Made by a program: the position numbers and the translations under genes. A DNA stretch of 24,196 nt, from NCBI GenBank assembly GCA_027460535.1, contig JAPZAR010000002.1:1-24196 (forward strand). The letters run 5' to 3'. The notes beneath the pieces were generated by a model. That model worked only from the letters and a program-made list of their open reading frames with translations, was not told the origin of the DNA and made no database searches. Below are positions 4,242 through 24,196 of the stretch, in pieces (the stretch's first letter is position 1; each line of letters opens with the position of its first letter). The DNA comes from Candidatus Methanoperedens sp. (lineage in GTDB: Archaea > Halobacteriota > Methanosarcinia > Methanosarcinales > Methanoperedenaceae).

Positions 4242-4290
4242 CTACAATTTGAGTTTAGAGTGTATTAGATGGCATATACTTTTTCCCAAG

Positions 4291-4300
4291 AATCTATATA
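4291..4300. promoter_or_regulatory. AATCTATATA box, copy 3 (about 50 nt upstream of the PhoU-like paralog 1 start)
   Basis: Exact 10-mer in the AT-rich intergenic region 4242-4521. Confidence 0.35.
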
Positions 4301-4521
4301 TGCTACATAAAATCAGTATAAAATCATTCTTTTCATTGGCGGTTATATCGATAATGGATACTGCGCTGTTTAATTTTACAAATGCAGGAATCTTAAAGCT
4401 ATTCTGCAATTTGCGATTGTGCTTCTGATATTGAATGGCATAATTAAGCGGTCTAATCCGGCACACAGCCAAATAATGGATAGCAGGATCAGGATAAATT
4501 TCTTTCCGATTCTTATCGACA

Positions 4522-7212
4522 TTACGATTCTTCTTCCATTAGATTCAGAGTGCCTTCCGTTGTATCTTCATGGTATTGAATAGAGAATCCCATCCTCTCA
4601 AGAAGTTGAATCGCTCGATGATTATCAGGTAACATTATCGCATGGACTGTTTCAATTTTTTTGTCCTTGCAGATTTCAATCATATAGTCCACCATTTTAG
4701 ATCCCAGCCCAAGGCCCTGCCATGGATCAGCAACAATGAAAGCAATTTCTGCTTTTTTCCCATCAGGCTCAATAATAAGCCTCACCACACCTATGATTTT
4801 CCTTTGATCATCCTCGATTAATTCTGCTACTATGGCCATTTCCCGATAATAATCAATATTGCAATACCGGACCCGAAGCTCGTGAGGAGTATCCTTGATA
4901 ACTTCAAAAAGCCTGTAGTGCAAGGATTCTTCTGAGAAGTGCTGGAACATTTCTAACCACATTGGTTCATCTTCCGGCTTTATGGGTCTTAGAATTACGG
5001 TACGGCCGTCCAGGAGTATCCATGGGATTATATACTTCTCAGGATATGGGCTGATCACAAGGTGTTCATGGGCTCTGAGTTTTTCGAACACATTTTCTTT
5101 ATCTATCACCACGCGGGCATCAAGAACAAAAGCCTCCTTTTCATCTATAAATAATGGATTAATATCAACTTCTTTAATTTGAGGAAAATCAACAAGCATC
5201 TGGGAAAAACGAATCATTATCTCTTCAAGCAAGTTAAGATTTGCAGGCAGCTTATTCCGATAACCCTTTAAGATTTGATAAACAATTGTTTCCTCCATTA
5301 TTCTTCTCGCTAATGTTTGATTTAACGGCGGAAGCCCCACGGCAACATCTTTAAAAAGTTCTACACCAATACCACCCATTCCAAACAGGATTACAGGGCC
5401 AAATAACCTGTCGGTTTTTGCTCCCAGGATAATCTCATATCCTTTTTTTATCATGGATTGAACTGTAACTCCCTGAATCCTGGCTTTCGTATTATAATCT
5501 TTTGCCCGTTTAATAATGTCATCAAATGCAACTCTTACTTCAGCCTCAGAATTAATATTTAGAACGACCCCTCCTGCGTCTGTTTTATGTACTATTTCCG
5601 GTGATAATACCTTCAGAACCACTGGAAAACCTATCTGGGAAGCCATAGTAACTGCTTCATCTGCGTTTTTTGCCACCAGTGTTTTCACAACCGGAAAATT
5701 ATAATCTTCCAGAAGGTTCTTTGCTTCCATTTCGGTCAATATTTCCCTGCCTTCTTTTGCCGCATTTCTTATGATAATCTCCAGGGGACGTCTGGGCGGT
5801 ATGCTATTTACAGGCAGTTCGGCAGGTGTTTCATAAAGCAGTTCAAGATTCCGTTTATATTGATACATGTACATGAAAGTTGCAACTGCCTGTTCAGGAG
5901 TGGAATATGTCGGAATGTTGTTATCAATAAGAATATGGTTTGCCTCTTCTACATCTTCGTAACCCATGAACGATGTCAATATGGTTTTACGATGTTCTTC
6001 ATTCCTGACCACTTCCACAATCGTTTTGGCAACATCAGCAGGATCCGTAGTTCCCTGGGGAGTATGAATTATTAAGATCGAGTCAATGTTCTCGTCTCTA
6101 AAACATGCCTCCATAGATGCTTTGTATCTGTCGGAACCGGCATCTCCCAAAAGATCGATCGGGTTTCCTTTACTCCAATAACGAGGTAAAATACCGTCAA
6201 GCATCTCCATCGTTTTTTCGCCAAGCTTTGCAAGCTTCCCCTTTCTTGCTAAGAGCGCATCCGCAGCCATCACTCCCGGACCGCCTGCATTCGTGATAAT
6301 AACAAGGTTCTGTCCTTTAGGAAGGGGATGAAGACCCAAGACTTCGGCGCAATTGAAAAGGTCGGCAATTTCCTCAACACGCACTATCCCTGCACGTTTA
6401 AATGCAGCCTCATACACCATATCTTCACCGGCAAGAGATCCCGTATGTGAAGCTGCTGCTTTTGCACTTTCACTAAACCTTCCAGCCTTTACCACGATTA
6501 TGGGTTTCGTCCTTGCAAAGTGCCTCGATGCACTCATGAATTCCCTGGCATCGGTTATCCCTTCAATATACATCAATATGCTCGTTGTCTTAGGGTCAGT
6601 TCCGAAATAGTCTATGAGATCCCCAAAGTCCACGTCAATCATCGAACCTACTGAAACGAAATTACTGAATCCGATGTTCTCATGGGTTGCCCAGTCAAGA
6701 ATTGCTGAGCCTAATGCACCGCTCTGTGAGATAAATGCGATATTGCCCGGCTTTACCAATTTTTTTAAGAAAGTTGTATTAAGATTGATATCCGGGCGGA
6801 TGATACCAAGACAGTTGGGTCCAATAATTCGCATGTTATATTTCTTTTTTAACTCGATAATCTTATCTTCAAGTGCTTTTCCTTCTTCCCCGACTTCTTT
6901 AAAACCTGCTGAAATAATGATCAGTCCGGGTATTTTCGCTTTTCCGCACTGCTCCACCACTTCGGTTACGGTTTTTGCAGGTGTTGCGATAATAGCAAGG
7001 TCAACAGTCTCTGGAATTTGACCAACGCTTTCGTAAGCCTGCAATCCAAGAATCTCAGGCTTATGAATATTGACCGGATACACTTTTCCTGAGTATCCTG
7101 CTTTTGTGAGATTTTCCATTAATATATATCCCACAGAATCCTTTTCATCGCTTGCTCCGACCAGTGCGATGCTTTTTGGATGAAAAATCTTATCAAGATT
7201 TGAAATAACCAT
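4522..7212 (-). CDS. pat: Pat/YfiQ-type fusion: ADP-forming acyl-CoA synthetase-like region (CoA-binding, CoA-ligase, ATP-grasp) + C-terminal GNAT acetyltransferase
   Basis: The track ORF starts at a TTG (7230). The ATG at 7212 (MVISNLDKIFHPKSIALVGAS) follows a GGGGA motif, giving 896 aa. The N-terminus has KSIALVGAS...GY (CoA-binding) and the SHTGSLAG loop. The middle has an ATP-grasp region (FPVVLKV.SP.I.HKTDAGGV). The C-terminus RPIKPEDEP...YRLF...IDYYREMAIVA...QGLGLGSKM...LNL is colinear, from my memory, with the GNAT end of Salmonella Pat. Confidence 0.85.
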   Translation of the reverse strand: MVISNLDKIFHPKSIALVGASDEKDSVGYILMENLTKAGYSGKVYPVNIHKPEILGLQAYESVGQIPETVDLAIIATPAKTVTEVVEQCGKAKIPGLIIISAGFKEVGEEGKALEDKIIELKKKYNMRIIGPNCLGIIRPDINLNTTFLKKLVKPGNIAFISQSGALGSAILDWATHENIGFSNFVSVGSMIDVDFGDLIDYFGTDPKTTSILMYIEGITDAREFMSASRHFARTKPIIVVKAGRFSESAKAAASHTGSLAGEDMVYEAAFKRAGIVRVEEIADLFNCAEVLGLHPLPKGQNLVIITNAGGPGVMAADALLARKGKLAKLGEKTMEMLDGILPRYWSKGNPIDLLGDAGSDRYKASMEACFRDENIDSILIIHTPQGTTDPADVAKTIVEVVRNEEHRKTILTSFMGYEDVEEANHILIDNNIPTYSTPEQAVATFMYMYQYKRNLELLYETPAELPVNSIPPRRPLEIIIRNAAKEGREILTEMEAKNLLEDYNFPVVKTLVAKNADEAVTMASQIGFPVVLKVLSPEIVHKTDAGGVVLNINSEAEVRVAFDDIIKRAKDYNTKARIQGVTVQSMIKKGYEIILGAKTDRLFGPVILFGMGGIGVELFKDVAVGLPPLNQTLARRIMEETIVYQILKGYRNKLPANLNLLEEIMIRFSQMLVDFPQIKEVDINPLFIDEKEAFVLDARVVIDKENVFEKLRAHEHLVISPYPEKYIIPWILLDGRTVILRPIKPEDEPMWLEMFQHFSEESLHYRLFEVIKDTPHELRVRYCNIDYYREMAIVAELIEDDQRKIIGVVRLIIEPDGKKAEIAFIVADPWQGLGLGSKMVDYMIEICKDKKIETVHAIMLPDNHRAIQLLERMGFSIQYHEDTTEGTLNLMEEES

Positions 7213-7550
7213 AGCAATCCCCTGATTCAATCATTTGTATGAATACAGTAAATATGACGTTGTGCAATATTAGTTTTATCCCCACATTTTTGATACAATT
7301 CCCGTTCAACGACCGCCATCTGAAGGAGCTGTCCGATAATCGCTTTCCTGTATGACAGGGCGGCTTTGATATATACTTGGAGTGGTTAAAAAACTATTAG
7401 GACGTGATCTGGCAGGCAAGCCGGCTGACCTGAAGCATGTTTGCAGCGCGCGTTGTTTGTACCTTAAAGTATGGGTACTCTGAAAGTTGTGGGATAATCT
7501 CCTTTATTTTGGATTATTCAGATTATAAAAGATATATGTATTATTCCAAT

Positions 7551-7560
7551 AATCTATATA
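7551..7560. promoter_or_regulatory. AATCTATATA box, copy 4 (31-40 nt upstream of the PhoU-like paralog 2 start)
   Basis: Exact 10-mer, extended as AATAATCTATATATATTC. Its position fits a TATA box with a short leader. Confidence 0.4.
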
Positions 7561-7590
7561 TATTCAAAATATCAGTAGAGTAAAGATAAC

Positions 7591-13392: not shown

Positions 13393-13461
13393 TTATCGCC
13401 TATAATTTTTAACAATTGCAAAAATATATCACCGGGATAAGCTATAGAGGGATATCGATTT

Positions 13462-13502
13462 GCGGAGGTTGCCCAGACCGGTCAAAGGCGCCAGCTTGAG
13501 GG
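13462..13502 (+). pseudogene. Orphan 5' half of a tRNA-Leu-like gene (acceptor 5' strand through anticodon loop only)
   Basis: GCGGAGGTTGCCCAGACCGGTCAAAGGCGCCAGCTTGAGGG matches the first 41 nt of the intact tRNA at 13615 except in the acceptor and anticodon-stem strands. I found no 3' half (GCTGG, T-arm, CCTCCGC) downstream. Confidence 0.6.
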
Positions 13503-13614
13503 TTATGCTCGAAGCATGGCACAAGATTTAAGTCTGGGTATCACGAAAATAGCATAAAAAAAGATGTAACTTAACAGATATAAACCTTGCGCAAAAGATA
13601 GCGCAAACATATAT

Positions 13615-13702
13615 GCGAGGGTTGCCCAGACCGGTCAAAGGCGATAGCTTGAGGGGCTATTTCCGTAGGGATTCATGGGTTCAAATCCCATCCCTCGCAC
13701 CA
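13615..13702 (+). tRNA. tRNA-Leu (anticodon GAG), class II with long variable arm, encoded CCA
   Basis: Hand fold: GCGAGGG-UU-GCC/CAGACCGGUCAAA/GGC-G-AUAGC/UUGAGGG/GCUAU-UUCCGUAGGGAUUC-AUGGG/UUCAAAU/CCCAU-CCCUCGC-A-CCA. A TATA-like GATATAAA sits about 30 nt upstream. Confidence 0.9.
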
Positions 13703-18651: not shown

Positions 18652-20365
18652 TTATCCTCCTCATTTTTTTAATCTGGTAAATTGTTAATATTAATGTGAA
18701 CACTGCAAATATAATGCTAAACCCGGGTGTTCTGGGCGTATTAACACCCACAGTAGGTGCAGGCGTTGCTGTTGTAATGACAATCGGCTCAGGTGATTGC
18801 TCTTTGATTGTAATAGACATATTTGCAGTCCTAAAGCCCTGTTTGACAGCACTTAACCCGAAATTTCCCGCTTCTTTGAAGCTATATTCTAAAAATCCGC
18901 TTTCATTGGTTTTGCCTATTTCCCTGCCGTTAAGAAGAACTGTTGCATTCTCGACAGGCTTTGATATGGATTTAACTTCAATGAGAGCTGCATCCCCTTG
19001 TTTAATAGAACTTGGAGCATAAATGGATATAACTTCATCGTATCCCTTCATTTTCAATAGATATACCTGTTCTCTCCCGGTAGACCTGCCAACGGTAAAA
19101 AGTATCCTGCTACCATCAGGGCTTAAGTATATTTTGTTGCTGTTATAAACATCTGTGGGCACATTCTTAACAAGCAGCAATCGTTCAGTTCCATCTGGTT
19201 TTATTTTAACAATAGAATCGTTAGTCATATAGTATATTTCATTGTCCATTCCCCAGACATACGCACTTTCCATTCTTGCAGAGTAGCTTTCAGGCAGAGT
19301 AATTTTATCAGTTCCATCCGAATTTACTATATAAAGGCTACTAGCCCTGGCGGAACGAAAGGCAATTTTATCGCCATTGGGACTCCATGAAATTTGACTT
19401 GCCCACTTCTCATCTACCGTTTTTGTAGTTCCAGTGTCTATATAATATATTCGAAGGTTTTCAAAGTCTCCATTTTCATTATGCTTAGTAAAAATTATTT
19501 TTGTTCCATCGGGGCTCCATGAGGCAAGGTAAAAGTCTTCCCCTTTTTCGATTAATCTGAGATTGCTGCCATCAGCATCTATTACATAAAGGGCGTCTAA
19601 AGTTATTATGACTAACTTTTTACCATCAGGCTTCCAGCTTAGTCCTATGGCTTGCATATCACTGTTAGTTGTCAGTTGCTGAACAGATGCATTATCGACA
19701 TTAACTGTATAAACTTCACCATCTTTGTCGCCAATGAAAGCGATTTTTTCCCCGTCAGGACTCAATTTTATACCATCCTCATAATCTGCAAAGCTCCAGC
19801 CCAGAGGAAGCTGATTAACGGTCGAATTATCAGCCAAAATGGAACCATTTCTGTATGAAACGTATTTTTGGGTTTTCTCATCGCAAGGATTCAGAACCAT
19901 GAATACAATTTTATCTCCATCTGGACTCCACCAGGCAGAATCTAAAAAAGCTGCAGTATTGTTCTTTGCTGCCCGGATGCTTACCTCGGCTCTTGCAATG
20001 TTAGTAACCTCACTGCCGTCCGCATACATCCAGAAAAGAGTGGAAGCGCGCTCATGGAGACCGAATTCACCGCATGGGACACGTTTTGTGTCACCTTTCG
20101 TCGCCATATTCCTGTGAGTTAAAATCAATAACCTTGACCCATCAGGAGACCACAGGAAATTGCTATCTGCGACGGTATAGAAAATGTCGAACATATTAGA
20201 GTCAATTGATTTTAGTACCTCTTTATCCATAATATTAGTGATCTCGACAAAGCTTTCAACTTTATCAGCATCTGTGGTCAGATTTGAGGCGCTCGCTGTG
20301 GTTATCTGGGCTATGGATAAGAGCATACTGATTGATATTATTAGTGGACCTGTTTTTTGGTTCAT
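18596..20365 (-). CDS. Secreted PD40 (TolB-like) beta-propeller protein with a PEGA/CarboxypepD_reg-like domain and a PGF-CTERM sorting signal
   Basis: 589 aa with a signal peptide. Seven (W/L)(S/K)P(D/N)G..(I/L) PD40-type repeats. NATVLLNGREIGKTNESGFLEYSF..G.F.LSAVK.GF is a small beta-sandwich. Then a Thr/Pro linker TTATPAPTVGVNTPRT, PGF, the hydrophobic SIIFAVFTLILTIY, and QIKKMRR. Confidence 0.8.
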   Translation of the reverse strand: MNQKTGPLIISISMLLSIAQITTASASNLTTDADKVESFVEITNIMDKEVLKSIDSNMFDIFYTVADSNFLWSPDGSRLLILTHRNMATKGDTKRVPCGEFGLHERASTLFWMYADGSEVTNIARAEVSIRAAKNNTAAFLDSAWWSPDGDKIVFMVLNPCDEKTQKYVSYRNGSILADNSTVNQLPLGWSFADYEDGIKLSPDGEKIAFIGDKDGEVYTVNVDNASVQQLTTNSDMQAIGLSWKPDGKKLVIITLDALYVIDADGSNLRLIEKGEDFYLASWSPDGTKIIFTKHNENGDFENLRIYYIDTGTTKTVDEKWASQISWSPNGDKIAFRSARASSLYIVNSDGTDKITLPESYSARMESAYVWGMDNEIYYMTNDSIVKIKPDGTERLLLVKNVPTDVYNSNKIYLSPDGSRILFTVGRSTGREQVYLLKMKGYDEVISIYAPSSIKQGDAALIEVKSISKPVENATVLLNGREIGKTNESGFLEYSFKEAGNFGLSAVKQGFRTANMSITIKEQSPEPIVITTATPAPTVGVNTPRTPGFSIIFAVFTLILTIYQIKKMRRINETEYGKCVCNCTEGVRR

Positions 20366-20505
20366 TTACTTCTCATCATATCATCATTTTATTATAAAAA
20401 AATAAGTGGTTTATAGATAAGAGCGTACTGATTAATATTATTAGTGGATCTGTTTTTTTGTTCAATTACTTTTCACCATATCATCATTTTATTATAAAAA
20501 AAATA
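20312..20505. repeat. Tandem direct duplication (two ~94-nt units, 100-nt period) of the promoter and first 18 codons of the beta-propeller gene
   Basis: Unit A is 20312-20404 (contains the real ATG at 20365). Unit B is 20412-20505 (ATG replaced by TTG). They are about 90% identical by hand alignment. Confidence 0.85.
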
Positions 20506-20545: not shown

Positions 20546-20983
20546 CTATGTCAGAGTGCGCTTCATTGCGAACATATAATAGGGATTTTTGATATCCAGC
20601 TGTATTTTGTGATCCCAAGATAGCGTTGATCCATAGAGTCGCAGAGTTTTTCCGGCATTAACTGGCGCATTCAGAGGATTACCACCGGTATCTGTGATTT
20701 TCTGTTGAACAGAGAGGTAATTAGCGAGATCCAGTTGATAGTTCAGATATTCACCGTTTTGAGTGTTGAGCCTGTAATAGTCATCCTCATCACTAGGGAT
20801 GGTAAATTGGCCGTTTGCATATATAGACCAACTATTAAGGGGGATTGATGATTCTAGCGAACTTGCTTGGCCTGCAGTATTCCCTGCATCTCTTCCTCCT
20901 ATGATTGGATCTGCCAGTGCTGCACCACTGAATAAGCTCAGTACCATGAGAACCATTGCTCCTATTTTTAAGCTTGCTTTCAT
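20546..20983 (-). CDS. Small secreted protein with a PPC (pre-peptidase C-terminal)-like domain
   Basis: 145 aa. Signal peptide MKASLKIGAMVLMVLSLFSGAALA. A..L.....G.F.IPSDEDDYYRL....GEYLNYQL resembles the D.D(W/Y)Y.F core of PPC domains. GGAGG lies 9 nt upstream. An A-run on + (oligo-T on the gene strand) follows the stop. Confidence 0.5.
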   Translation of the reverse strand: MKASLKIGAMVLMVLSLFSGAALADPIIGGRDAGNTAGQASSLESSIPLNSWSIYANGQFTIPSDEDDYYRLNTQNGEYLNYQLDLANYLSVQQKITDTGGNPLNAPVNAGKTLRLYGSTLSWDHKIQLDIKNPYYMFAMKRTLT

Positions 20984-21010
20984 TCTTTTTCACCTCCTTT
21001 TTATATTACT

Positions 21011-21163
21011 CCAGAGGCAAAACTAGGCAAGCCTTTAATACCTTGAAGGTCATGACCTTATTTTGCCTTCGGGCCATTGGGGTTCAACCGTACTTTAGTA
21101 GGTTCAGTTGAACCCTACGTTTTTCATGGTCAGTAAAATCCAGTTGTTAGAGTTTTTATCTCC
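21011..21163 (-). repeat. Conserved non-coding upstream element, copy 1 (28 nt upstream of the 20983 start)
   Basis: Aligns with 24046-24196. A 78-nt block (21077-21154) is identical to 24110-24187, and the ATG-proximal 66 nt is about 80% identical. It has stop codons in all three frames of the gene strand. Confidence 0.85.
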
Positions 21164-21397
21164 AAAACCTACACTTTACCACCATTTTTGTACAGGATTT
21201 ATTCATCTGTACACCAACTAACTTTCATGTAATGTATATAAATTTATCGTTTTTATCTTGTTTTAATCAGTTAAATGTGAAAAAGAAATCTTTAATATTA
21301 AAAAAAGTATCAATTAGAAAAATGGTTAGTAAACGAAAAGAATGCGAGAGTTGGAATTTTCAAAAACAATCCATACATTTCAATCCTTAAATTAAAA

Positions 21398-21565
21398 GGA
21401 AGTATCGTTGACTTTTCCGTGGTGGCGGTAATATGCGCTTTTCTGAGAGTCTGGGATTACAGGGCAGCCTTTGCAATCCTTGCGGGAATTATGATTCACA
21501 GCGGGTGCGACATATAAACGACATCTATGATATAGAGATAGACAGAATATGCAAGCCAAATGGTG
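21398..21565 (+). pseudogene. UbiA-family prenyltransferase fragment, frameshifted and truncated
   Basis: One frame reads ...AAFAILAGIMIHSGCDI* (TAA at 21515-21517). The next frame continues INDIYDIEIDRICKPNG (21517-21543 = NDxxDxxxD, the UbiA Asp-rich motif 1). The rest of the ~280-aa family is absent. Confidence 0.5.
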
Positions 21566-21804: not shown

Positions 21805-22788
21805 TTACTTTCTTTTAATTAATAGCACTGCCAGCATTGCTGAAATTGCGAAAATTACTTCGAACGCAGGTGTTTTTGGCGTTGCGGTCGTTGGTGATGC
21901 CGTCGGTTTCGCCGTTGTGGTTGCCGGTGTAAATTGGAGAGCAGGGTATGGATGTTGGCAGCCGGGTTCTCCCACAAAGCCAGCATCGGAGCCGCTTTTA
22001 CCGTAGTGACATCTGAAACAAAAACCGTTATTGACTGGGATATCAGTGAAGTTATCTCGATTCGTATCCAAATTTGTTGGTTTTGTGTCCAGATTACCGT
22101 GACAGGTGCTGCATTTGCTGTCGTTCCCGCCGTAATCAACGCCGTGACTCCCTTCACCAAATACCCATTTCGAAAAAGGTGGATTGATTGAGGTCATTGT
22201 GCTCGGATGAATGGGTGCAGATGGTGTATAGTCAGTTATATTCGTTAGTTCTGGAGATATCGAAACTACATATTTAATTTCGAGTTTCTGGGGTTTGGTC
22301 TTAAGAGACTGTATAATATAAAAAGAACCTTCCCCTACCACGCTAGTACCATCGGAGCACCAGACTCTTGGTGGCACTCCATGGGTTTCAGTAAGCATCT
22401 TAATCTGGTAGGTCGGATCTGAAAGGTTGCCAATAATTGATACCCCCAGATTCTCTCCAAAGAACTGGTTGATATCCTTCGTTGGGTCATCAATGCGTGT
22501 TGGAATGAGGTTGTCTGTAAGGTCATTCACCCTGATGAAATAATCTCCTGGCGCTATGCCGCTCAAATTAAACAGAGCCGTAAAATTTGCTGCAGTCCCG
22601 GTTACTGTTGTTATAGTTCCGTTATAATCCATTCGGAGCAATTCAGCCTTCGTGATGGACTTTGCCCTGATGATATCCCCTTTGCTATCGAGGCTGGGCT
22701 GCAGACTGACAGTCAATGTTCCAGCAGCAGCAAGCCCTGTACCTAATATGAGGCATATTACAAATACTGCAATGATGTGGTATTTCAT
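21805..22788 (-). CDS. Secreted two-haem c-type cytochrome with a large non-haem N-terminal domain and a PGF-CTERM-like (PAF) anchor signal
   Basis: I prefer the ATG at 22788 (GGGAGG upstream; MKYHIIAVFVICLILGTGLAAAG signal peptide), giving 327 aa. CxxCH motifs are CSTCH (22099-22113) and CFRCH (22006-22020). C-terminus: TPATTTAKPTASPTTATPKT-PAF-EVIFAISAMLAVLLIKRK. Confidence 0.7.
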   Translation of the reverse strand: MKYHIIAVFVICLILGTGLAAAGTLTVSLQPSLDSKGDIIRAKSITKAELLRMDYNGTITTVTGTAANFTALFNLSGIAPGDYFIRVNDLTDNLIPTRIDDPTKDINQFFGENLGVSIIGNLSDPTYQIKMLTETHGVPPRVWCSDGTSVVGEGSFYIIQSLKTKPQKLEIKYVVSISPELTNITDYTPSAPIHPSTMTSINPPFSKWVFGEGSHGVDYGGNDSKCSTCHGNLDTKPTNLDTNRDNFTDIPVNNGFCFRCHYGKSGSDAGFVGEPGCQHPYPALQFTPATTTAKPTASPTTATPKTPAFEVIFAISAMLAVLLIKRK

Positions 22789-22931
22789 TCTTAAGTTCCT
22801 CCCGGTAAGCTGTAATTTATATTTCAATTCTTTTCATATATAAAAACGGCGGCCCGGCTGTTATTGAGATTCGAACCGATGGTGTTCTACCCACTGTTCT
22901 CATATTAATTTCATCGACTTCAAATAAAATG

Positions 22932-23014: not shown

Positions 23015-24019
23015 TTAGGGCATACGACCTGTCTGAAGGATGACTTCAGAAGGCGATCTTATATTGACACCCATTGTTCCACATGCTGCTGTTGCTGATT
23101 GGTTTATCCAAGATGTCCATGATGGTGTTCTACCGGCTAAATGCAAATTTGTAAAGTCATTTCCTCCTGATAACTGTCTGCAGTTGTTTATGTTATACGA
23201 TTCTAACGTAACATAACTATTCGGAAATTTAAGATTCGTATATGCATATTTGCTTGATGCAACGCCAGAATTAATGTCATATGTCCATATTAACCAATGT
23301 GTTGGTTGGGCAGTCTGGAGCTGCATATATCCATATATGGAATCGCCCACATTAACTCTTGTGATGGTCTCATTGTGAAAATAACTCCCGTTTATTCCAT
23401 ACCATGACGAAATATCCCAGGAATTTCGTCCGTTCTGTCCCCATTCCAATACGGGCTGGAGAATGGAAGCTCCGGAGTTCTCACTGTTCTGCATTGCTGT
23501 AAAGTAAAATATGGTCTGATGCGGGCTTGCCAGGTCGAGTGGAGCGGATGGAACATTCCAAATTCCTTCGAAAAGGGTGTTACCGGCGCTATTGATATCT
23601 CTTGCCCGTTCTGTCCAGCCATTAATTGCTGGTAGCGCGTCGCCGGCAGATGCTTTGACGAGATTTCCGACTCTGTAGCTGCATTCCTCTGCGACATAAT
23701 CACACGACATGTCCAGTACTTCATTATCCGGTACTTTAATTTTTTTCGATAACTTATCCATAGCTTTTTTTGTTGCGTCTAGGCGCTCTGCAATAGAACT
23801 TGTCTTTGGTATCTTAACAGTCCCGCTTTCGATTATGGCCTTATCGAAGTCTGATTCATTCATTATGTGACGACGGTCGGGGGTCATAATTTTTCCAGAC
23901 TTCACGACTTTGGTTTGCTCATTTGCTCCTTGCGCGCTTACCACAGCTACAAAGGCAATGCTAACGATCAACAAAGCCGCAAGCAGTGCCCCTAATTGCA
24001 TTCCTTTACTTTTTTTCAT
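23015..24019 (-). CDS. Secreted protein; possible eqolisin-like (G1 family) glutamic peptidase with an N-terminal pro-region
   Basis: 334 aa. Signal peptide MKKSKGMQLGALLAALLIVSIAFVAVVSAQG. GGAGG lies 7 nt upstream. The segments WNVPSAP, SILQPVLEW, VNVGDSIYGYM and YVTLESYN align by eye with the scytalidoglutamic peptidase blocks ANVPSAS, AILQTGFDW, ISEGDSIQMSV and AEFIIEDFE. The catalytic Gln (codon 23456-23458) and Glu (23201-23203) equivalents are retained. Confidence 0.4.
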   Translation of the reverse strand: MKKSKGMQLGALLAALLIVSIAFVAVVSAQGANEQTKVVKSGKIMTPDRRHIMNESDFDKAIIESGTVKIPKTSSIAERLDATKKAMDKLSKKIKVPDNEVLDMSCDYVAEECSYRVGNLVKASAGDALPAINGWTERARDINSAGNTLFEGIWNVPSAPLDLASPHQTIFYFTAMQNSENSGASILQPVLEWGQNGRNSWDISSWYGINGSYFHNETITRVNVGDSIYGYMQLQTAQPTHWLIWTYDINSGVASSKYAYTNLKFPNSYVTLESYNINNCRQLSGGNDFTNLHLAGRTPSWTSWINQSATAACGTMGVNIRSPSEVILQTGRMP

Positions 24020-24045
24020 ATTTTTCCTCCTTTAATTTTTCTTAT

Positions 24046-24196
24046 CCCGGAGGCAAACAGGCAAATCTTTAATACTTTGAAAGTCTTAACCTTATTTTGC
24101 CTACGGGCCTTGGGGTTCAACCGTACTTTAGTAGGTTCAGTTGAACCCTACGTTTTTCATGGTCAGTAAAATCCAGTTGTTAGAGTTATTATCTTT
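24046..24196 (-). repeat. Conserved non-coding upstream element, copy 2 (27 nt upstream of the 24019 start; runs off the window)
   Basis: See copy 1. The identical 78-nt core is at 24110-24187. Confidence 0.85.

Follow-up and report, generated by a model that had tools for sequence, protein, structure and literature searches.

The repeated leader in the window

The window, i.e. the whole stretch of DNA analysed, comprises 24,196 nucleotides (nt) from Candidatus Methanoperedens sp. (assembly GCA_027460535.1, contig JAPZAR010000002.1, positions 1 to 24,196 of the forward strand), and the element in question is a non-coding repeat that stands in it twice, each time just upstream of a minus-strand gene specifying a secreted protein. 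Comparison with related loci indicates that each copy is probably a bidirectional RNA control module, homologous to the 5′ untranslated region (UTR) of gene MM2442 of Methanosarcina mazei and the small RNA, sRNA162, that overlaps it. The features assigned to the two copies are as follows:

20546–20983, minus strand: gene for a 145-amino-acid (aa) secreted protein (the 'PPC-like' gene of the original prediction); open reading frame with a signal-peptide-like N-terminus
20981–20997, minus strand: copy 1 Shine-Dalgarno (SD) sequence GGAGGUG (20997–20991) and ATG (20983–20981), read from the sequence
21008–21074, minus strand: copy 1 sense hairpin P2-P4 (GCCCGAAGGCAAAAUAAGG...CCUAGUUUUGCCUCUGGAG), predicted from minimum free energy (MFE) folds and covariation in the family
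21013–21022, minus strand: copy 1 putative anti-SD sequence UUUUGCCUCU, the 3′ strand of P3, complementary to GGAGGUGAAA; from constrained folding
21033–21041, plus strand: copy 1 TATA-like box (CTTTAATAC), predicted antisense promoter, beginning at −32 from the predicted start; from its position in the family
21065–21124, plus strand: copy 1 predicted antisense small RNA, 60 nt; from its fold and sRNA162 homology
21078–21117, both strands: copy 1 hairpin P1 (sense) or SL1 (antisense), within the 78-nt core; from covariation
21126–21213, minus strand: copy 1 upstream leader hairpins, predicted by folding, at 21126–21185 (GGUGGUAAAGU...GGAUUUUACUGACC) and, as the 5′ hairpin, at 21189–21213 (UGUACAG...CUGUACA)
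21235–21249, minus strand: copy 1 candidate distal sense promoter CGATAAA-TTTATATA, conserved in related leaders
23015–24030, minus strand: gene for a 334-aa secreted protein (23015–24019) with SD GGAGG (24030–24026); predicted eqolisin (G1 glutamic peptidase) fold
24046–24108, minus strand: copy 2 sense hairpin P2-P4 (GCCCGUAGGCAAAAUAAGG...UUUGCCUCCGGG), predicted from folds and a compensatory difference with respect to copy 1
24067–24075, plus strand: copy 2 TATA-like box CTTTAATA at −32, predicted antisense promoter; from the sequence
24099–24157, plus strand: copy 2 predicted antisense small RNA, 59 nt; from the sequence

Positions 21077–21154 and 24110–24187 are identical (78/78 nt), the identity breaking off at either end; a chance origin of an exact repeat of this length is ruled out in 24 kb of DNA with a GC content of 42.5%. 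The ATG-proximal parts (21011–21076 and 24046–24109) agree at 55 of 67 positions (82%) with small indels, and one difference between copies 1 and 2 is compensatory (CCUU/AAGG to CUUU/AAAG). The distance from the element to the start codon is 28 nt in copy 1 (ATG at 20983) and 27 nt in copy 2 (ATG at 24019), and each frame of the gene strand is interrupted by stop codons. No significant similarity links the products of the two downstream genes (BLASTP best E 1.2), both having signal-peptide-like N-termini. The original prediction had described a colinear repeat with a perfect 78-nt core, about 80% proximal identity with small indels, a spacing of 27–28 nt to the ATG, stops in every gene-strand frame, and encoded proteins with nothing in common but their signal peptides, all of which agrees with these measurements. 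The 145-aa protein itself has no Pfam match, and its orthologues at loci L018, L042, L046, L052 and L063 (loci are given here by their L numbers) are preceded by the same leader. The 334-aa protein, annotated at NCBI as a hypothetical protein (locus tag O8C66_04485), gave an AF2 model with a pLDDT of 82, the top Foldseek matches of which were scytalidoglutamic peptidase 2ifw (E 3.5e-9), SCP-B and neprosin.

Copy 2 is truncated by the window edge at 24196, which is the end of the contig. The ENA k141 contigs from two samples (L001, L002 and L006, at position 1 of each) break, like the window contig, 177–179 nt upstream of the ATG of the 334-aa gene, and Logan contigs break 30 nt (k−1) into the identical core. 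Since independent assemblies break at the element, these observations suggest the existence of at least one further near-identical copy in the genome, matching copy 2 over at least 141 nt.

A family of leaders upstream of secreted-protein genes

Scans of public genome and metagenome contigs for an exact 21-mer and an exact 19-mer from the hairpin returned no match. Relatives were then reached via protein orthologues, and after that with a degenerate pattern made from the conserved blocks. The upstream regions of orthologues of the 334-aa gene carry the same element; that of L016 shows 80% similarity to copy 1 over 244 nt, extending through the TATA region, and in L018 the element precedes both a 344-aa and a 141-aa orthologue. 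The degenerate pattern detected 53 loci in GTDB species genomes, 39 of them archaeal copies (in Methanoperedens, other Methanosarcinales, and evidently mis-binned contigs); the remaining 14, judged to be coding regions of bacteria, complements of tRNAs or chance matches, were discarded. A covariance model, R1, recognized 62 copies with scores of 57–129 bits at 43 loci in 32 genomes or bins of Methanoperedens and other Methanosarcinales; five bacterial control loci yielded no match, and the window yielded no copy beyond the two already known. At least seven copies are present in Methanoperedens BLZ2, and at least seven in the metagenome-assembled genome (MAG) OBJ1.

All copies for which a downstream gene could be identified stand upstream of that gene and on its strand; none of the 62 copies is reversed relative to its downstream gene and none was found inside a gene. 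In 48 of the 62, an SD sequence and an ATG lie within 12–34 nt of the end of the model, and in most the GGCA motif is 72–89 nt from the ATG. Nearly all of the encoded proteins begin with MK..K followed by a hydrophobic stretch, and many have a near-identical signal peptide (MKKSKGMQLGALLAAMLLLSMAFVPAVSAQ) attached to unrelated mature parts of 50–664 aa. The Pfam and NCBIfam matches among 30 downstream proteins include matrixin M10 (twice), reprolysin-like M12, subtilase S8, a C39-like domain, PPC, DUF6345 (twice), an Rv1815-type serine protease (twice) and a halocin-C8-like domain. The peptidases represented in the family are M10, M12, S8, S1-like, C39-like and, by its fold, eqolisin. The proposal that the repeat is a shared, position-fixed cis-regulatory leader rather than random repeat DNA is thus reinforced by 62 copies in 32 genomes or bins, none of them reversed. 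Counting the copies and listing the genes behind them, as the original prediction had advised, yielded 62 copies (found by pattern and covariance model) ahead of secreted-protein genes, and the covariance model it had called for revealed base-pair covariation in support of an RNA structure, as set out below.

Leader-bearing secreted-protein genes also occur in tandem arrays (four in 12 kb, three in 8 kb and three in 4 kb; L036 with L062 on contig JBGPUU010000076.1, L058, and L069). The near-identical signal peptides that these genes often have on unrelated mature domains suggest that a cassette of leader plus signal peptide has been shuffled. Typical copies, together with Methanoperedens-like genes, were also seen on contigs binned as Nitrospirae, WOR-3, Bacteroidetes and Ruminiclostridium (L034, L039, L043 and L060), which were probably mis-binned. 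At two loci (L018, 7373–8555, and L021, 1389–2609), a gene for a 148-aa protein and one for a helix-turn-helix (HTH) regulator with ArsR/MarR-type Pfam matches lie divergently upstream of the leader of the eqolisin-like gene, an arrangement resembling that of MM2441 (ArsR family) and MM2440 beside sRNA162.

Sense and antisense features of the element

When folded as single sequences on the gene strand, nearly all copies form two elements, hairpin P1 and the long P2-P4 hairpin, beyond which come a linker rich in A and an unpaired SD sequence. P1 has the form GGGGUUCAR...YUGAACCCC; P2 is GCCC/GGGC or CCCG/CGGG; P3 is AGGCAUGG/..CGCCU or GGCAAAA/UUUUGCC; and P4 is GCUUUGAA-loop-UUUAAAGC with variants. 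In the R1-based alignment of the 62 copies, 82.7% of the cells were paired, compared with 33–51% when the 3′ partners were slid by 1–3 columns. The covariation score was 0.191, as opposed to 0.129 ± 0.005 for shuffled alignments (0/500 of which reached it) and ≤0.09 for the slid versions, and changes on both sides were seen in 18 of 35 pairs. For P1 (helix 1), 88% of the cells were paired and both sides had changed in 5 of 10 pairs. RNAalifold applied to plain MAFFT alignments recovered only the stems fixed by the search pattern (GGGTTCA, GAACCCC and CCGWARGCA, fixed in 48 of the 62 copies), and a hand-specified structure with covariance-model realignment was therefore used. In the 14 copies found by R1 alone, the pattern-fixed blocks vary, and do so in a compensatory fashion (e.g. 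GGGGCUCAG/CUGAGCCCC, GGAACU/AGCUCC). Covariation thus supports both hairpin P1 and the long hairpin P2-P4.

The type of non-canonical pair indicates the strand on which each helix is read. On the sense strand, G.U cells outnumbered A.C cells in P3 (96 versus 30), P3c (54 versus 20) and P4 (58 versus 27), whereas the non-Watson-Crick cells of P1 were 46 A.C (which are G.U on the antisense strand) versus 8 G.U. Judged by these pairs, P2-P4 is constrained as a sense RNA, and P1 is constrained on the antisense strand at least as much as on the sense strand. The leaders also differ in the 3′ strand of P3/P2: in the 17 type-A copies, which include both window copies, it reads UUU(U)GCCUC(U/C)GG and is thus a putative anti-SD sequence (UUUGCCUCC at 24049–24057 in copy 2).

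Window-type leaders have a further conserved upstream part of ∼110 nt, the consensus fold of which in 12 related leaders is −13.1 kcal/mol in the sense and −4.1 kcal/mol in the antisense direction. A 240-nt sense RNA beginning at the predicted distal start folds into four hairpins (−73.7 kcal/mol, z −5.6) and leaves the SD sequence free. The candidate distal TATA box TTTATATA is at 21242–21235 on the minus strand, with a predicted sense start at ∼21212–21215. The sequence CGATAAATTTATATA (21249–21235), which resembles a transcription factor B recognition element plus TATA box, is conserved in seven related leaders and absent from some tandem-array copies; the form AAACGATA(A/G/T)NTTTA(A/T)ATA is kept in L016, L031, L037, L060, L064, L065 and L070. 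The predicted length of the window leader is either ∼229 nt (distal promoter) or ∼145 nt (proximal GATAAAAAC box): the original prediction of a TATA sequence beyond the element, and hence a leader of ∼200 nt, gains plausibility from the conservation of that box in seven leaders and from the better folding, on the sense strand, of the stretch between box and element. The sense sequence TTATTTAAAG is disfavoured as a proximal sense promoter because the P3 pairs that span it covary on the sense strand. An alternative pairing within the P1 region of the window (GUAGGGUUCA with UGAACCUAC), considered as a switch, is not conserved in other types, and neither is an upstream open reading frame at the AUG in CCAUGAAAAACG, other copies having CCAUAAAA or CCACAAAA there. 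A promoter-like box, CA(C/T)AGAAAnTTATWTA, was noticed 35–120 nt upstream of P1 in many leaders (L034, L036, L021, L069, L039, L073, L022, L052, L033 and L042). Just upstream of this box lies a long inverted repeat, the arms of which covary (e.g. CCAAATCATCGAACT/AGTTCGATGATTTGG) and to which the Rfam sRNA162 model aligns its SL3 hairpin, as seen in L039 and L073.

On the opposite strand, the predicted copy 1 RNA (−22.9 kcal/mol, z −4.1) would consist of a GCC-UUCG-GGC tetraloop hairpin (21065–21074), SL1 (21078–21117) and a U5 tract (21120–21124). That of copy 2 would begin with a GCC-UACG-GGC hairpin, followed by SL1 (24111–24150) and U5 (24153–24157), being identical to the first from +12 onwards. 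UACG also belongs to the UNCG class of tetraloops, which are exceptionally stable. A C(UNCG)G hairpin, G-C-C(UNCG)G-G-C, forms the first ten antisense nt in 57 of the 62 copies (UUCG in 55; UACG in two, including copy 2). The sense reading, CGAA or CGUA, lacks the stability of the tetraloop, and variants such as GAAAGC or ACCCGAAGGC in the sense strand give U.G or G.U pairs on the antisense strand and mismatches on the sense strand. In 59 of the 62 copies the predicted antisense start has a TATA-like 8-mer ahead of it, beginning at −29 to −32; it is a perfect TTTAAATA or TTTATATA in 25 of them, and its TTAA core, which lies outside the constraints of the search pattern, is invariant in alignments A4 and A5. 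The box CTTTAATA is common to both window copies and to L066, the locus matched by Rfam (see below), in which it stands at −30. Oligo-U tracts terminate archaeal transcription, and a run of five or more T residues begins at +52 to +61 in 36 of the 62 copies, both window copies among them, which predicts an antisense RNA as long as the stable fragments of sRNA162 (55–65 nt). Most likely, then, the perfect core represents the body of this predicted ∼60-nt RNA, and the proximal part a sense-strand hairpin in which the predicted antisense promoter and the anti-SD sequence are contained.

The antisense strand also provides the link with sRNA162. A search of 18 family loci with the Rfam model of this RNA (RF02792) at its gathering threshold produced one relevant match, in a Methanosarcina sp. 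MAG (L066, 6984–7184, minus strand; 78.4 bits with a gathering score of 78, E 5e-12), at the very place where R1 matches the plus strand (7096–7246); a sub-threshold match (33 bits) lies in the same register in L043. L066 was rejected as the MM2441-MM2442 locus itself, its neighbours not being ArsR-type regulator genes. The Rfam consensus begins with GCcuUcgGGc, the reverse complement of the conserved GCCCGAAGGC of the family: sRNA162 is complementary to GCCCGAAGGC over its first 10 nt, GCCUUCGGGC, and to P1 in its SL1. In the window, GCCUUCGGGC followed by SL1 (GGGUUCA...UGAACCC) is present on the plus strand at 21065–21117 and 24099–24150 (with UACG for UUCG in copy 2), and the predicted geometry of the two transcripts is that of sRNA162 and MM2442, SL1 being contained in the leader and a TATA-like box standing at −32. 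sRNA162 is completed (∼190 nt) by SL2, a 39-nt single-stranded linker and a long SL3; the window-type upstream region has no long inverted repeat and folds better on the sense strand, but an SL3-like repeat occurs in other groups of the family. In M. mazei, sRNA162 and MM2442 are transcribed divergently; the small RNA is 191 nt long, and with its first 65 nt it overlaps the 184-nt MM2442 5′ UTR and binds it in vitro, the starts having been mapped by RNA ligase-mediated rapid amplification of cDNA ends (RLM-RACE), and the mapped MM2442 start is only 65 nt upstream of the antisense start (PMC3510493). Stable 5′ fragments of 55–65 nt arise from the RNA by processing, which goes to completion in stationary phase; this leader is also bound by the paralogue sRNA171, and the only species in which BLAST homologues were reported are M. 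acetivorans and M. barkeri (PMC3510493). Our literature search found no paper linking sRNA162 with Methanoperedens, and none on a shared secreted-protein leader. Sequence comparison thus establishes the chain of homology from the family to sRNA162, together with the fixed position and the RNA-type covariation. The original prediction was right, as far as it went, in proposing a shared cis-regulatory leader, and its suggestion of an sRNA docking site came close to the biology of sRNA162 and MM2442, but it missed the predicted antisense small-RNA gene inside the leader; the Rfam scan it had suggested is negative for the window and positive for a family member, L066.

A putative bidirectional module, its rivals and known systems

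In the proposed model, the gene strand would provide the structured 5′ leader of a secreted-protein mRNA (P1, P2-P4, A-rich linker, SD, ATG), while the TATA-like box inside P4 on the opposite strand would start an antisense RNA at the complement of GCCCGAAGGC, comprising the UUCG or UACG mini-hairpin, SL1 (the complement of P1) and, after ∼60 nt, the U5 tract. This RNA would be perfectly complementary to its own leader and almost perfectly so to the leaders of paralogous genes, and could therefore act both in cis and in trans on the set of secreted-protein genes, several of which specify peptidases. In a window-type leader, pairing would capture GCCCGAAGGC, the 5′ strand of P2/P3, and would thereby free the 3′ strand, UUU(U)GCCUC(U/C), to act as an anti-SD sequence and shut off translation. 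This switch is predicted solely from folding energies. With the 65-nt target blocked, the mean calculated cost of opening the SD sequence in the 17 type-A leaders was 7.1 kcal/mol, as against 1.7 (median ∼1.1) without blocking (a rise from 0.55 to 7.45 for copy 1, and from 0.34 to 6.25 for copy 2); the constrained MFE structures contain the pairings UUUUGCCUCU/GGAGGUGAAA (copy 1) and CCUCC/GGAGG (copy 2).

A number of points weigh against the bidirectional module. No match to the Rfam sRNA162 model was obtained at E≤10 in positions 20900–21400 or at E≤5 in the whole window; what is shared with sRNA162 amounts to only ∼24 sequence positions and the shape of SL1; and window-type modules lack the long inverted repeat corresponding to SL3. 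The antisense TATA-like box of the window matches at only 6 of 8 positions, and the U-run after SL1 is absent in roughly 40% of the copies. The alignment used to score covariation was fitted to the structure and its sequences are related, while the conservation of P1, GCCCGAAGGC and part of the hairpin is partly a matter of ascertainment, these having been fixed by the pattern in 48 of the 62 copies. As many as 34 of the 46 A.C cells in P1 come from a single column pair in related sequences, the remainder being 12 versus 7. Blocking had no effect on the SD sequence in 30 type-B leaders (mean +0.4 kcal/mol), so that the switch is not general and type B must respond otherwise, e.g. by duplex-dependent decay; further, the free short leader of copy 1 is already nearly bistable. 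Antisense transcription in this organism, the length of the RNA and the SD switch are all things that we infer.

An alternative in which only the sense strand matters was considered. The element would then be a structured 5′ UTR, acted on by a protein, a ligand or RNases to set mRNA stability or translation, and the antisense features would be relics or by-products. The abundance of sense G.U pairs in the covariation of P3 and P4, the fold of the 240-nt leader (z −5.6) with its free SD sequence, and the better sense folding of the upstream region of window-type leaders are all in keeping with this, as is a kink-turn (K-turn)-like P2, with GCCUGAUGAGGGC opposite GCCCGAAGGC, in nine of the 62 leaders. 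The K-turn pattern consists of a C stem, a 3-nt bulge and tandem G.A pairs, and motifs of this type are bound by L7Ae. The nine (L016, L018:8759, L036:4014, L062:6552, two in L064, two in L065, and L071:6166) have GCCU-GAU-GA-GGGC opposite GCCC-GA-AGGC, with a C-box-like UGAUGA and tandem G.A pairs; in the majority of the other type-B leaders the tandem GA/GA is present but the bulge is not. In both window copies a K-turn was rejected: CCCG.A.AGGC pairs there with GCCU.C.(U/C)GGG, and no G.A pairs are formed. A sense-only leader would, however, leave unexplained the TATA-like box at about −30, the UNCG hairpin, the U-run after SL1, the excess of A.C in P1, and the register-exact homology to an antisense RNA mapped by experiment, and the loops are poorly conserved for a ligand pocket; we regard it as unlikely. 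The riboswitch that the original prediction had allowed for finds no backing, since scanning the window and sets of 18 and 8 loci with Rfam returned only tRNAs, sRNA162 and chance-level matches (no aptamer), and the hairpins stand in series with variable loops and linkers, forming neither a multi-helix junction nor a conserved pocket.

Explanations at the level of DNA fare worse. The near-perfect palindrome GGGGTTCAAC...GTTGAACCCC might be an operator, bound by a dimeric transcription factor that co-regulates the secreted-protein genes; its arms are extremely well conserved, and HTH regulator genes lie divergently beside two copies (L018 and L021). The arms, however, change in a compensatory manner (e.g. 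TTCAG/CTGAA, CTCAG/CTGAG, and UUUGG/CUGGA with G.U pairs), the spacer ranges from 14 to 24 nt, and the site is downstream of every plausible sense promoter, all of which makes an operator very improbable. The perfect identity of the core raises the question of whether the copies are without function of their own, promoter DNA having recently been duplicated locally or copied across by gene conversion. Gene conversion did occur, since all five orthologues of the 334-aa gene (5/5) have a type-B proximal part while copy 2 in the window is, like copy 1, of type A. Identity within and between genomes was 0.77 and 0.67 for the antisense region, and 0.82 and 0.61 for P2-P4, so that copies from one genome resemble each other more than those from different genomes. 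As the antisense region is, among paralogues, no more conserved than P2-P4, the perfect core of the window is, on these figures, a local event, the simplest reading of which would be that gene conversion recently carried sequence from the leader of the 145-aa gene to that of the 334-aa gene. The 78-nt identity spans the part read on both strands, and it may be speculated that selection for cross-pairing of both antisense RNAs with both leaders helps to keep it. As an account of the element as a whole, neutral duplication is nonetheless highly improbable given its conservation, with covariation, before orthologues and unrelated genes across genera. Finally, the multiple copies and the breaks they cause in assemblies might recall a mobile element, such as a miniature inverted-repeat transposable element (MITE) or a repetitive extragenic palindrome, but the fixed position before start codons, the lack of any reversed copy and the conservation of orthologous positions make this scarcely credible. 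In the repeat search of the window, which was not aimed at target-site duplications, the element was not flanked by terminal inverted repeats. The MITE that the original prediction had named as its refutation, scattered in orientation and distance and bounded by such repeats, is thus not what was found.

The bidirectional module may be taken one step further, to a possible but doubtful scheme in which every gene of the secreted-protein set carries its own antisense RNA gene, the near-identical bodies forming one cross-reacting pool that sets translation via the SD-sequestering switch, with the copies kept matched by gene conversion. If true, archaea would possess a type of RNA regulon not so far described in them, distributed and self-encoded. 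sRNA162 is among the few archaeal small RNAs with tested targets, but it has so far been treated as a single-locus RNA exclusive to Methanosarcina, with a cis target, MM2442, of no known role. The present comparison suggests that a far larger family exists, of which the 5′ domain of sRNA162 and the leader overlapping it form the conserved core, and that in Methanoperedens, an anaerobic methane oxidiser of environmental importance, this family marks secreted-protein genes, the products of several of which are peptidases differing in catalytic class. The cis interaction would thereby gain a testable function, the control of secreted proteins, and a concrete switch model, and R1 offers a sequence handle on this gene set in uncultured Methanosarcinales.

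Other features of the window were also recorded. A gene lying between the two leader-bearing ones (21805–22827, minus strand) has no copy of the element; its product, of 340 aa, has a signal peptide and a PGF-CTERM sorting signal as well as two CxxCH motifs for haem binding. Positions 20307–20402 and 20407–20502 form a 96-nt tandem direct repeat (90% identical), the first unit holding the ATG and first codons of a 589-aa PD40/Tricorn-like gene (start 20365, minus strand) and the second being a decayed duplicate of the promoter and N-terminus of that gene. A 45-nt repeat (13458–13502 and 13611–13655, 89% identical) has as its second unit the 5′ half of tRNA-Leu(GAG) (13615–13702); the first resembles a tRNA 5′ half but lacks any recognisable 3′ half, and neither ARAGORN nor Rfam calls it; possible identities are a pseudo-tRNA, a tRNA that is split or contains an intron, and an integration remnant. 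A repeat of ∼110 nt (1799–1908 and 2852–2962, 84–88% identical) with the perfect palindrome GGGGAGAAATATTTCTCCCC may be a shared terminator or 3′ end, and an AT-rich motif ending in AATCTATATAT, found in three intergenic regions (2207–2253, 4264–4301 and 7524–7561), may be a shared promoter. Also present in the window are an archaeal RNA-polymerase D/ribosomal-protein gene cluster, a gene for a PGF-CTERM cytochrome-like protein, and ABC-2 transporter genes.

With respect to known systems, the predicted type-A switch recalls SD-sequestering leaders such as translational riboswitch platforms and RNA thermometers, in that an anti-SD sequence held in a hairpin can pair with the SD sequence instead; it differs in having no ligand-binding junction or Rfam family, in that the predicted trigger is an RNA, and in that type B has no anti-SD sequence. 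Nine of the 62 leaders fit the pattern of the L7Ae-bound K-turns of archaeal 5′ UTRs, but most copies lack the 3-nt bulge, and the window copies are Watson-Crick paired at that place. CopA/CopT of plasmid R1 and RNAI/RNAII of ColE1 are cis-antisense control RNAs that act by loop-loop 'kissing'. As in those systems, a short stable hairpin RNA would arise from the strand opposite a leader, and its large complementary loops could nucleate pairing and so change the fold or translation of the target; there is, however, no homology, these being bacterial plasmid systems, and what would be controlled here is a chromosomal gene set rather than a replication primer or repA leader.

The closest relative is sRNA162/MM2442 (RF02792; Jaeger et al. 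2012, PMC3510493). The window copies differ from it in having neither the single-stranded linker by which MM2441 is bound nor an SL3 inverted repeat, and their U5 tract immediately after SL1 predicts an RNA of ∼60 nt rather than 191 nt. The family has at least seven copies per genome as opposed to the one or two of that study, its downstream genes specify secreted proteins, several of them peptidases, and a type-A leader with an anti-SD switch is undescribed for MM2442. What the two would have in common, on the predictions made here, is a divergent, overlapping pair of mRNA leader and small RNA, with a TATA box ∼30 nt upstream of a start at GCCUUCGGGC and the long SL1 hairpin thereafter, an antisense overlap of ∼60–65 nt that corresponds to the stable 5′ fragments, and paralogous copies able to bind each other's leader.

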